Shown in pieces: positions 9,001-12,000 of a stretch of 59,872 nucleotides of DNA. The first letter of the stretch is position 1; every line of letters begins with the position of its first letter. A program made the position numbers. The stretch lies in sequence record AP012530; one strand, 5' to 3'. The DNA is from Stx2-converting phage Stx2a_F349.

Positions 9001-12000
9001 ACAATTGGTTATGTGTTTTTTTGGGCGAGAGGAAAAGAAAACCCGGCATGGAGGCCGGGTTGATGATTAGCGGTGTGGCCTTGAGCGATAATGCTCACAC
9101 ACATGTTCAAGATTTCCATGCCTTATCCGTTCATAGGCATTCACATGAACTTCTCGATCGAATTGGTCATTCAAATTGTATGTAGACATCTGTGTTTTCT
9201 CATATTGGCGGCAGCCCTACAACCGCTTGAAAAAATGTACCAGACGCGCTAAGGTTACATCGCAAATATTGTGTACCTTAACAAGGGCTCCTTTTGGAGG
9301 CTCTGGTTAAACAGCATCAATGTCGGACTGGGGAGTTGGACATTGTGCTGAATGCTTTTGCATTATTGAGGCCGAACGTAAACCTTCAGAATTGAAGAGA
9401 TGCGTTCGGCTTCTTCGTTTGTGATATCGTTAGGAATGCCTTTAATCGTTACTGTAACCCCTGATTCAGGTCGAAGAACTACTGGAAGATCATAGGTATG
9501 AAGTGCATTAGCCTTGCCTTCGACTTTTGTTGGTTCGCCAGTCAAATCTTTTTCCTCACTGGATTCTTTGTCAATCGGAGTGTATGGGATTTCTTCACCA
9601 GACTGGAAAGCTACAAACTTTTTGATTGCACTTTCCATGCGGCTTTTATATGCAGTAATGCTGCTGTCGCTAGGCTTCGGCTCAGTTGCGTTGATGTATC
9701 GCTCGGCAAGCTCATTCACATCAAGCTGAGTAACATCACCCATTTCCTCTTCTTGGACTACCGTTAAGAGGCGAGCGGATGAGTTTTTTAAATTTCGAGC
9801 GGTGGCCTCCTTCATTATGTTCAGCGACATAAGCTCTTCAAGGAAGTCCTTGAATGCCTGCACGCTAACGTTTGACTTTGCCATTTGCTCTCTCTCTAAG
9901 TTATTGACTCAGATCGAGTTTATCCAGGAATTGATTTGCATGCAAGACTCAAGTCTTGAGAATTTCCGTTCAAGATCCACTCTCAATAAAAAAGGCCGCA
10001 CCTCTGCGACCTTTCATCTCCTAAATCTCTTTTCTCTTACCTAAAGAAACAGCAGGCTGGGTCAGCCCTAACAACTTCAAGTGCATCGGTCAGAGAAAGC
10101 TCCGTGCTATACAGGTGTTATTTCATATCTTTTTGCATCCAATAAATTTTCCATCTGTCCAGAGAGCGGATGCACTTGATTCTTGTTGATGGCAGGACGT
10201 TTTTTCACCTGCCTCACCCTGCCATACAGGACGCTGCTCACCGATATCTATCGTCCGGTCATTGATGTTATAGACAATATCCAGATCATTACGGATATAC
10301 TCAGATGGCCTTATGCTTTCAATGAATAGATGAACTTCTTTTTGACCGCTTGATACTCATGGCCATTAAACTCCATCTATCCTCTTTACCCAAACGTCTC
10401 TTCAGGCCATTGGCTGGCGATAACTTTCCCCACAACGGAACAACTCTCATTGCATGGGATCATTGGATATTGCGGGTTTAGTGGTTGTAGAAACACCTGA
10501 CCGCTATCCCTGATCAGTTTCTTGAAGGTAAATTCATCACCACCAAGTCTGGCTATGCAGAAATCGCCGGGCTCAACAGCTTGCTCAGGGTCAACCAGAA
10601 TTAACATCCCGTCAGGAAAACTAGGTTTGGAACCTGTTGGTGCGGTCATTGAGTTACCTTCAACCTCAAGCCAGAATGCAGAGTCACTGGCTTTTTTGGT
10701 TGTGCTTACCAATCTCTCCGCATCACCTTTGGTAAAGGTTCTGAGTTCTGGAGAGAACATCCCAGCCTGAACATGAGAAAAAACAGGGTACTCATATTGT
10801 TTTTTAACTGGGGCCGATGAGTATTCGCCAACAGGTGAAAATGTCCCGTCGTGGTTGAATGATATGTTATCAATACCAAGGTATTTAAACACCACACCAA
10901 TATCACTAAGAGATGGATGACGAGATCCGCGCAACCAGTGTCCAATTCCACCCTGCGTCATACCTAGCTCTTCGGCTAACTTCTCTTGAGTTATGCCGAG
11001 CTCTTTCATTCTGGATCTAGCCAGTTCATACCATTTCATTTTCATGTCCTTATTATTACGCTCTGTACTGGAACCATCCATGCACAATGTGTATTTTTAC
11101 TTGTATTTGAGAAGTACATATTGTGTTTTTTATTCGTGGTTACTATGGAGGGCATATGAGCAACCTACGAAAATATCGAGAGTCACTGAATATCTCTCAA
11201 ACAACACTTGCTAAGGCAGTTGGATGCACACAGGGAGCTATCGGACATTGGGAATCTGGTCGTCGCTTCCCAGACCTTAAAACATGCCGTGCTCTTGTTG
11301 CGTGTCTAAACAAGTTAGGCGCAAAAGTAAGTCTTGATGACGTGTTCCCGCCGGAGCACAAAGCCGCTTAATAAGCGGAGCCGCTCTTTGTAACAACGGA
11401 CATTCGTCCTACGTCGCTGAAAAGCGAGTCCCAAGATATCTGACCAACTAAGGCCATATGCGTTTCCACGCATACCTTTCAACTAACTATTCACTATTGG
11501 AAATCTTAAGAAATGGAACGAACAAGTTACAGCAAACTATCACAGCGCGACGTTGATCGCGCAGAAACAGATTTACTCATCAACCTGTCAACGCTTACAC
11601 AGCGCGGTCTGGCAAAGATGATTGGCTGTCATGAATCGAAGATAAGCAGAACGGACTGGCGGTTTATTGCTTCGGTCTTGTGTGCTTTCGGAATGGCATC
11701 AGACATCAGTCCGATTAGCAGGGCTTTTAAGTATGCGCTTGATGAAATCACAAAGAAAAAATCCCCGGCTGCCACCGAGGATTTTAAGCAAATTGATATG
11801 CAATTCTGAGGGAATTACTGGATCAATCCACAGGAGTAATTATGACAAAACGTCGTAAGAAATACCAGGAAAAAGAAGAGATTCGACACCCTGATTCACC
11901 TGAGGGATTAGTGGTAGCCGCAGCAAATAACAGGGCGTTCGCAGAGCGCCTTGTTGGTGTTTACAGACTAGCCAAAGCAGGAGTGAAACATGGGCGTCGT

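Follow-up and report, generated by a model that had tools for sequence, protein, structure and literature searches.

A conserved prophage cassette with a structured RNA leader and an exchangeable small gene in the cI–N slot of an Stx2-converting phage

Shiga toxin (Stx) phages drive the virulence of enterohaemorrhagic Escherichia coli (EHEC), and their quiescence is only partly understood. In the Stx2-converting phage Stx2a_F349 (AP012530; the whole stretch of 59,872 nucleotides is called the window), we analyzed a minus-strand cassette located between the repressor gene cI and the gene of the N-type antiterminator. The unit consists of a promoter with an overlapping palindrome, a 173-aa open reading frame (ORF1), a structured RNA leader, the small gene H0092, and a terminator. 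ORF1, which is everywhere annotated as ‘hypothetical’, is H0093 of phage VT2-Sakai, ECs1184 of strain Sakai, and ORF23 of Sp5. The initial annotation of this DNA had recognized the 173-aa ORF, which does exist, but described it as a single-gene unit; this description does not hold, as the structured RNA and the 40-aa H0092 gene lie between the ORF1 stop codon and the terminator. The features of the cassette, in the direction of transcription, are:

9985..10015, minus strand: intrinsic terminator at the end of the unit formed by cI and a DUF3024 pseudogene (pRM unit); 11-bp stem and U-run, free energy (dG) −18 kcal/mol, z −2.9
9943..9958: operator-like palindrome CAAGACT-TG-AGTCTTG (7+7 nt, 2-nt centre), overlapping the −35 box
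9917..9945, minus strand: candidate sigma-70 promoter, TTGCAT (9945-9940), 17 nt, TAAACT (9922-9917), predicted start near 9910
9363..9884, minus strand: ORF1, 173 aa
~9208-9350, minus strand: conserved, pseudoknotted RNA leader of ~145 nt between the ORF1 stop and H0092
9100-9227 (approximate), minus strand: EcOnc20, extending from leader helix P4 over the ribosome-binding site into H0092, of which the first two-thirds are included
9067-9189, minus strand: H0092, 40-aa protein gene, second gene of the cassette (PHROG 21154, E 5e-8)
9031..9061, minus strand: intrinsic terminator closing the cassette; 8-bp GC-rich stem and U-run, z −3.6, ~140 nt before the pL operators

Both terminators that had been proposed to bracket ORF1 turned out to be real. 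The upstream one has counterparts in other loci of the cI slot, where the same GGTCGC-AGAG-GCGGCC-T6 terminator is found 108-210 nt upstream of ORF1 behind different repressors. The downstream one was detected at 9040-9061; on this side, a terminator is located 318-361 nt past the ORF1 stop in 24 of 25 non-redundant loci and ~300 nt past it in the window. The annotation of AP000422 labels the downstream element as the ‘terminator for the pRM transcript’, which is unlikely given the stronger terminator at 9985-10015.

The promoter proposed in the initial annotation is present at 9945-9917, but is not above chance when taken alone: only 8 of its 12 bases agree with the consensus, and our promoter scan, which itself returned 6 sites in the window versus 5.7 expected, did not pick it up. 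Its support comes from homologous loci: in essentially all of the 25 non-redundant ones, the ATG is preceded by a TTGxxx-16/18-TAxxxT promoter that stops 26-44 nt short of it. The Proteus cassettes have a better −10 box (TTGCAA-17-TAGAAT), and a distant subfamily with 41-46% identity carries TTGATC-17-TAAACT. The palindrome, originally read as CAAGAC-N4-GTCTTG, likewise is present and overlaps the −35 box, but its arms are in fact 7+7 nt around a 2-nt centre and it is not remarkable on its own (p ~0.1 versus shuffles, determined on the identical Oslo copy). Our repeat scan missed it because its arms are below the 12-nt minimum. The same palindrome is found in phage Oslo, a variant AAGACT-N1-AGTCTT occurs in loci L026 and L006, and AAGACT/AGTCTT over the −35 box is kept in close relatives. 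In the distant subfamily, a different, larger, CGATCG-rich palindrome occupies the same place (p<0.005 in four loci). Weak as both elements are in isolation, the comparative data thus support them as a candidate promoter and operator. The palindrome is present in a single copy in the window, so that any DNA target within the phage would be the cassette's own promoter.

We also noted that GATC (Dam) sites are over-represented near the cassette promoters: in 20 of 25 loci, 2-3 such sites fall within ~90 nt versus ~0.35 expected, suggesting that cassette expression is possibly methylation-sensitive. In the window these sites lie at 9912-9915 and 9973-9976, and in its group a GATC comes after the −10 box, whereas in the distant subfamily the −35 box itself is TTGATC. 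In two loci of the latter (L048 and L052), the promoter palindrome ~60 nt upstream of ORF1 forms a strong hairpin (dG −22) followed by a T-run and could double as a terminator or attenuator for transcription coming from the replication genes.

The RNA leader ends at the Shine-Dalgarno sequence of the small ORF and folds with a z-score of −3.6 in the window. It is composed of a P1 hairpin, a long-range helix P2 enclosing a small hairpin and P3, a single-stranded UCAAG, and P4, the loop of which pairs with an upstream AGCCC to form a pseudoknot. For the related type-A RNAs, a model of 23 loci comprises helices P1, P2, P2b, P3, and P4. In this model, 92.5% of the cells are paired versus 33-45% in slid controls, and 26 of 44 pairs show changes on both sides versus 1-9 in the controls; none of 500 shuffles reached the observed values. 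In type A, the P4 loop forms a pseudoknot with the strand that follows P2; this pairing was left outside the alignment model and is still 81-93% paired, with double changes in five of seven pairs. The window RNA belongs to a more divergent type B, and six type-B sequences show the same helix order and a 4-bp pseudoknot, with 92% of the cells paired versus 27-44% upon sliding and 10 pairs with double changes versus 1-4. The window RNA agrees with type A in its location, in the order of its helices, in the motifs UAGCG and UCAAG, and in having the pseudoknot. The type-A covariance model (R1, built here) scored only 0.2 bits on the window with filters off, i.e., gave no detection, and the homology of the two types is therefore putative and based on their architecture. 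Rfam 15 gave no match over the leader of either type, neither in the window nor in seven related loci.

The leader is tightly linked to ORF1. It accompanies ORF1 in 26 loci according to the covariance model, and in a search of viral contigs that started from a conserved RNA 14-mer alone, ORF1 ends 5-10 nt upstream of each of the 18 true RNA matches. One variable part of the leader is the tip of P1 (9318-9345), where the distal stem-loop is reverse-complemented between lineages and the hairpin is kept either way: the tip reads GTCCAACTCCCCAGTCCGAC in the window and L026, and GTC(A/G)GACTGGGGAGTTGGAC in Oslo, L036, L061, and L066, which looks like a hairpin-tip inversion by template switching. 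The only Rfam hit in the window, a weak and non-significant GadY-like match (9029-9158, minus strand; 20 bits, E 0.95), covers the 3′ part of H0092 and the terminator and overlaps EcOnc20, a published Hfq peak. The 3′ end of the cassette transcript may thus double as an Hfq-binding RNA.

Behind the leader, H0092 is clearly a real protein gene according to its substitution pattern, which indicates purifying selection: the proportions of synonymous (pS) and nonsynonymous (pN) differences are 0.86 and 0.13 in comparison to L066, with off-frame controls reversing the pattern, and 0.28 and 0.02 in comparison to phage Oslo. A homologue search retrieved no more than three proteins, as gene callers seldom annotate ORFs of this size. 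H0092-type peptides are found behind ORF1 relatives of only 37-40% identity. At the same place, other loci encode a 47-aa CxxC...CxC peptide or a 57-aa basic peptide (PHROG 33859), so that the small ORF switches among three apparently unrelated types; the 57-aa family is likewise under selection. The idea that H0092 is an HNH-like nuclease was dropped, as the candidate His/Asn/Cys residues are not conserved in the homologue of phage SH2026Stx1.

ORF1 matches PHROG 2602, a family of unknown function, over its full length (E 3.5e-102, residues 1-173 on profile positions 1-173). The earlier statement that the protein carries no recognizable motif was borne out: its sequence has no significant match in Pfam, NCBIfam, PADLOC, or the PDB sequences, none of the 5027 models of PADLOC-DB 2.0 (a library no newer than 2023) is hit at E values up to 10, and Foldseek searches against PDB and BFVD returned no match at E≤0.001. 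The family is large, with 659 clusters (50% identity, E≤1e-3), and nearly all members among the 150 best listed are 165-200 aa long. Its hosts include Escherichia, Salmonella, Cronobacter, Yersinia, Serratia, Proteus, Providencia, and Morganella. An AlphaFold model comprises a confident four-helix domain (residues 8-94; predicted local distance difference test, pLDDT, ~90), a disordered acidic linker (residues 103-127), and a C-terminal beta-beta-alpha module (residues 130-165, pLDDT 65-70). As modeled, the N-terminal domain is the core-binding (SAM-like) fold of tyrosine recombinases of the integrase/Xer type, with which these enzymes contact DNA. A C-terminal catalytic domain with the R-H-R-Y active site is lacking, there is no Phage_integrase match in Pfam, and the core-binding-like domain is followed only by the disordered linker and the 45-aa beta-beta-alpha module before the protein ends at residue 173. 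ORF1 is not a recombinase, and its small C-terminal domain probably mediates oligomerization. Across 26 diverse members, near-invariant residues group in T28-A-R-N-x-K, Y79-x-S-R-x3-A, and the C-terminal PTDLTxEEAERI. The N-terminal domain, the C-terminal domain, the RNA type, and the small-ORF type have been reassorted among lineages. L066 and L067, for example, have a strongly diverged N-terminal domain, with NTLKNMK in place of TARNLKNS, together with a C-terminal module nearly identical to that of L057-L061.

Conservation analysis showed that ORF1, RNA, small ORF, and terminator are strictly linked across very divergent loci, with a spacer of ~170 nt between ORF1 and the small ORF (174 nt in the window; range ~150-175 nt). 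The cassette resides between an S24 repressor gene and N in Sp5-type phages, phage Oslo, SH2026Stx1, and prophages of Proteus/Providencia, Serratia, and Salmonella; other genes can intervene between cI and the cassette, and phages with an identical ORF1 protein can differ in their cI repressor and replication module, several of each being represented. In the subfamily with 41-46% identity, the cassette instead follows O-like and P/DnaC-like replication genes, DUF1627, and DUF977 and precedes nin-type genes; there it is co-oriented with the replication genes and has no upstream terminator. This nin-slot variant was not found in complete E. coli genomes. A separate scan of genome contigs yielded one locus only. 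With its occurrence both in the cI–N slot and after replication genes, the cassette behaves as a mobile and self-contained ‘moron’ with two or more alternative locations.

The window represents an Stx phage of the Sp5/VT2-Sakai type, and the gene content around the cassette is lambdoid (exo, bet, gam, kil/cIII, N-type antiterminator, S24/helix-turn-helix (HTH) repressor, cro, cII, and replication genes). The neighbors of the cassette are:

8362-8634: N-type antiterminator gene (N_peptide, E 3e-32)
8824-8852: promoter pL, further downstream than the cassette
10043-10344, minus strand: frameshifted DUF3024 (PF11225) pseudogene, directly behind cI and upstream of the terminator at 9985-10015
10386-11039: S24/HTH repressor gene (cI)

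Bases 9000-10400 are 100% identical to VT2-Sakai/Sp5, Stx2 II, the Stx1-converting phage, Nil2, and ~40 further Stx phages, and occur in 235 of 5426 complete E. coli genomes. The DUF3024 pseudogene was detected as two tblastn pieces in different frames with 81% and 85% identity to SH2026Stx1_00021; the gene is unbroken in the close relatives L024/L025 and in Proteus prophages. Within the pseudogene, a doubtful 53-aa ORF with a TTG start (10123-10284) is sometimes called by PGAP. As the DUF3024 pseudogene is the gene linked to pRM and a terminator lies beyond it, the cassette is a separate transcription unit. The initial annotation had assigned ORF1 to the rexAB position; it does sit in the slot from cI to pL and is autonomously promoted, but it is not equivalent to a rexAB pair cotranscribed from pRM, and the gene behind cI is the DUF3024 pseudogene.

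Downstream of N, ECs1180 (ORF21 of Sp5; 8043-8303, minus strand) encodes an acidic protein of 83-86 aa (PHROG 2471, function unknown). Its occurrence is restricted to Sp5-type loci that are nearly identical to one another, so it is not inherited together with the cassette, and a functional link between ECs1184 and ECs1180 was dropped for this reason. To the right of cII (11990-14184), the window departs from VT2-Sakai and instead resembles SH2026Stx1 in encoding an O-like protein of 273 aa and a DnaB-type helicase of 458 aa, showing that the phage is mosaic relative to Sp5. ORFs at 14291-15036 resemble the pair of small accessory ORFs found in IS66-family insertion sequences.

Although the initial annotation regarded the gene as unknown, it has been the subject of published experiments. 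Mondal et al. 2016 (PMC5155283) made 43 in-frame deletions of Sp5 genes in K-12 by sacB allelic exchange, but did not obtain those of ORF23 (ECs1184) and ORF21 (ECs1180), and proposed that both genes are needed for stable lysogeny. The deletion design kept 9 nt at each ORF end (PMC5155283), and the cassette promoter, leader, and H0092 would therefore stay intact in an ORF23 deletion. A 2025 RNA-interactome study detected the ECs1184 protein in EHEC cultures with a borderline RNA association (false discovery rate 0.065; PMC7618764). Transcription of the cassette and binding by Hfq are documented by Tree et al. 2014, whose Table S2 lists EcOnc20 as an orphan Hfq-crosslinking peak on the minus strand of Sp5 (NC_002695.1, 1255628-1255753). 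We placed it in the window by an offset of +136 to +142, calibrated on AsxR/stx2B, plus the window-to-Sakai offset, with an uncertainty of ~10 nt. Because pL lies further downstream, minus-strand RNA at 9100-9227 must stem from the cassette promoter or from read-through of cI. The known small RNAs (sRNAs) of Stx phages (AsxR, AgvB, and Pas) were considered as well and dropped, as they are located near PR′/late genes and not at this locus.

Our preferred, still tentative reading is that ORF1 regulates the cassette by binding nucleic acid and thereby curbs an output that is potentially harmful, in a regulator-effector module resembling toxin-antitoxin (TA) systems. In this model, the cassette would be expressed from its own promoter independently of the cI unit, and ORF1 would bind nucleic acid through its core-binding fold without a catalytic domain. 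It would limit the output at one of two points, namely the promoter, repressed via the palindrome, or the leader, which adjoins the ribosome-binding site of the small ORF. Loss of ORF1 would then lead to over-production of the leader and the small protein and harm the cell, which would account for the non-deletable ORF23; the phage would benefit from prophage stabilization, abortive-infection (Abi) defense, or both. The parts of the cassette and their conservation, the ORF1 fold, the RNA structure, and the coding status of H0092 come from our analysis, and transcription and Hfq binding from the literature; inferred are the binding of ORF1 to nucleic acid, what it binds there, harm by the downstream part, and the role in biology. 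The model would explain the counter-selected deletion, the cassette's own promoter and operator, the strict linkage of ORF1 and leader, and the Hfq site. In line with it, ORF1 combines a DNA-binding-like domain, a disordered acidic linker, and a small C-terminal domain, as in many antitoxins and repressors, and the cassette has its own promoter with subfamily-specific palindromes over the −35 box as well as insulating terminators. The purifying selection on the small ORFs and the detection of the ECs1184 protein, borderline RNA-associated, in EHEC cultures likewise fit. Counter-selection of the ORF23 deletion allele, the only phenotype on record, points first to a TA-like or maintenance logic, which could serve abortive infection.

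Several observations weigh against this model. The type of small ORF swaps while the C-terminal domain of ORF1 stays nearly identical, and this swapping without a matching change in ORF1 argues against a classical cognate antitoxin-toxin pairing of type II, which we rejected on these grounds. The 174-nt spacer is atypical for type II TA systems, and H0092 is not hydrophobic and has no recognizable toxin motif. ORF1 binding, toxicity, and regulation are putative. The failed ORF23 deletion is a negative result, and the ORF21 deletion, unlinked to the cassette, failed too. The polynucleotide kinase (PNK) signal of ECs1184 was near that of the green fluorescent protein (GFP) control, so that it is not a strong RNA binder (PMC7618764). 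Finally, the near-invariant surface motifs of ORF1 do not co-vary with the very different palindromes, which weakens the idea that ORF1 reads the palindrome and hints that the conserved partner may be the RNA rather than the operator.

There is a modest chance that ORF1 and the pseudoknotted leader constitute a dedicated protein-RNA switch, in which a repurposed core-binding fold would read the conserved RNA, or the promoter together with its own mRNA, and gate the translation of an interchangeable mini-protein effector.

With a similarly limited probability, ORF1 could be a lysogeny-maintenance factor as proposed by Mondal et al., i.e., a second repressor or co-factor that silences lytic genes or keeps cI working, and whose loss leads to induction and cell death. 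A gene in the immunity region that could not be deleted from the lysogen fits such a role, and recombinase-fold proteins act as master repressors in SPbeta-like phages. Against this reading, the palindrome has no second copy in the phage. The pairing of an identical ORF1 with several different cI repressors and replication modules, and family members located after replication genes far from the switch, also speak against it, and the model has no need for the RNA and small gene of the cassette.

The initial annotation favored an exclusion or defense function. In this reading, ORF1 itself would be the sensor or effector of superinfection exclusion or abortive infection, with a role like that of RexAB or BstA rather than primarily that of a regulator of its own operon. 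The slot shared with rexAB and bstA is a known mosaic hotspot, the moron architecture with its own promoter and terminators and the expression in uninduced cultures are in agreement with a defense gene, and the wide, patchy distribution and module shuffling are typical of accessory genes. We give this function the same limited probability. Its evidence is positional, and the argument became weaker upon finding that position is not exclusive, the same cassette also following replication genes in other phages. Besides, ORF1 is not matched by any PADLOC, Pfam, or NCBIfam family, the record holds no phenotype of phage resistance, and known single-protein defenses can be deleted whereas the ORF1 gene was not.

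It is rather unlikely that the cassette is an ordinary dispensable moron, in which technical reasons or an effect in cis prevented the deletion and neither the RNA nor the small ORF is tied to ORF1 by regulation. A deletion failure without a complementation test, shared with the unrelated ORF21, would be compatible with this explanation, but 43 other Sp5 deletions worked with the same method, and the strict linkage of ORF1, RNA, small ORF, and terminator across very divergent loci speaks against it. Highly improbable is an integrase decoy or modulator of recombination directionality, with ORF1 bound at core-type att sites or partnered with Int so that the lysogen is kept from excising the prophage: the integrase core-binding fold and the unrecovered deletion allele agree with it, but a lost excision block would cure the prophage rather than kill, and cured cells would survive the sucrose step, the only palindrome found is at ORF1's own promoter, and the conserved RNA and small ORF stay unexplained.

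Apart from ORF23, a single Sp5 gene withstood the deletion attempts, and the anatomy of the cassette makes this puzzle open to direct experiment. The gene, its non-deletability, and the listing of EcOnc20 are already on record. Our searches of literature and libraries turned up no description of how the cassette is built, of a core-binding fold in ORF1, of the mini-ORF as a coding and exchangeable gene, or of the conserved pseudoknotted leader. Should the cassette be a TA-like or Abi module, it would add a widespread system to the repertoire of the cI–N hotspot, provide a new structured RNA family, and give a function to EcOnc20. A protein-RNA switch would mean a new class of RNA-gated addiction or abortive-infection modules and a new cis-regulatory RNA family in many prophages of Enterobacterales, including Stx phages. 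A requirement for lysogeny would offer a lever on Stx-phage induction.

By its logic, TA-like, Abi-like, or repressor of a toxic neighbor, the cassette is a variant of known prophage accessory modules. An entry at the locus itself is EcOnc20, an orphan Hfq site predicted to encode an sRNA (Tree et al. 2014), which lies on the same strand and probably corresponds to the 3′ half of the cassette transcript; as listed, it comes without northern blot, boundaries, or function and is not tied to ECs1184, H0092, or a conserved RNA structure. Like the cassette, rexAB of lambda and bstA of Salmonella BTP1 sit between the repressor gene and pL/N, in a mosaic hotspot for accessory genes expressed in the lysogen, and the cassette is likewise expressed without induction. 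There is no sequence or domain similarity of either to ORF1 in Pfam or PADLOC: BstA has a KilA-N-type domain and is encoded directly behind the repressor, whereas ORF1 has neither KilA-N nor another Pfam domain nor a PADLOC match. RexAB is co-transcribed with cI from pRM; in the cassette, the terminator at 9985-10015 and the separate promoter intervene. The cassette further differs from rexAB and bstA by its structured RNA and mini-ORF and by also occurring outside the slot.

Type II TA systems resemble the cassette as small two-gene operons with an operator-like palindrome at their own promoter, whose first product, like ORF1, combines a DNA-binding-type domain with a disordered region, and removal of the first gene appears counter-selected. 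The cassette has two genes between one promoter and one terminator and palindromes over the −35 box in several subfamilies; autoregulation is putative. In contrast to the tight coupling of type II systems, it contains a 174-nt structured spacer, and its second gene encodes only 40-57 aa, swaps among three types without a matching change in ORF1, and is of putative toxicity. Type I systems and leader-gated small ORFs are exemplified by hok/sok and by the Hfq-dependent RalR/RalA of Rac. As in these, H0092 is a small ORF behind a highly structured mRNA segment, with Hfq at the translation-initiation region; the cassette differs in that we identified no gene for an antisense RNA, that H0092 lacks the hydrophobicity of a membrane peptide, and that a protein partner, ORF1, is always present.

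The prophage repressors RacR, with ydaS/ydaT, and DicA, with dicB, are essential because they silence toxic neighbors. Their loss is lethal through derepression of the adjacent prophage gene, which is the logic proposed for ORF1. RacR and DicA are HTH (Cro/CI-type) switch repressors of defective prophages, whereas here a separate, normal cI is present and ORF1 is predicted to have a recombinase core-binding fold. Use of the four-helix core-binding fold for regulation rather than recombination, as proposed for ORF1, has counterparts in other temperate phages, namely YopR/MrpR of SPbeta, SroF of phi3T, and the N-terminal part of P4 Int, which represses its own promoter.

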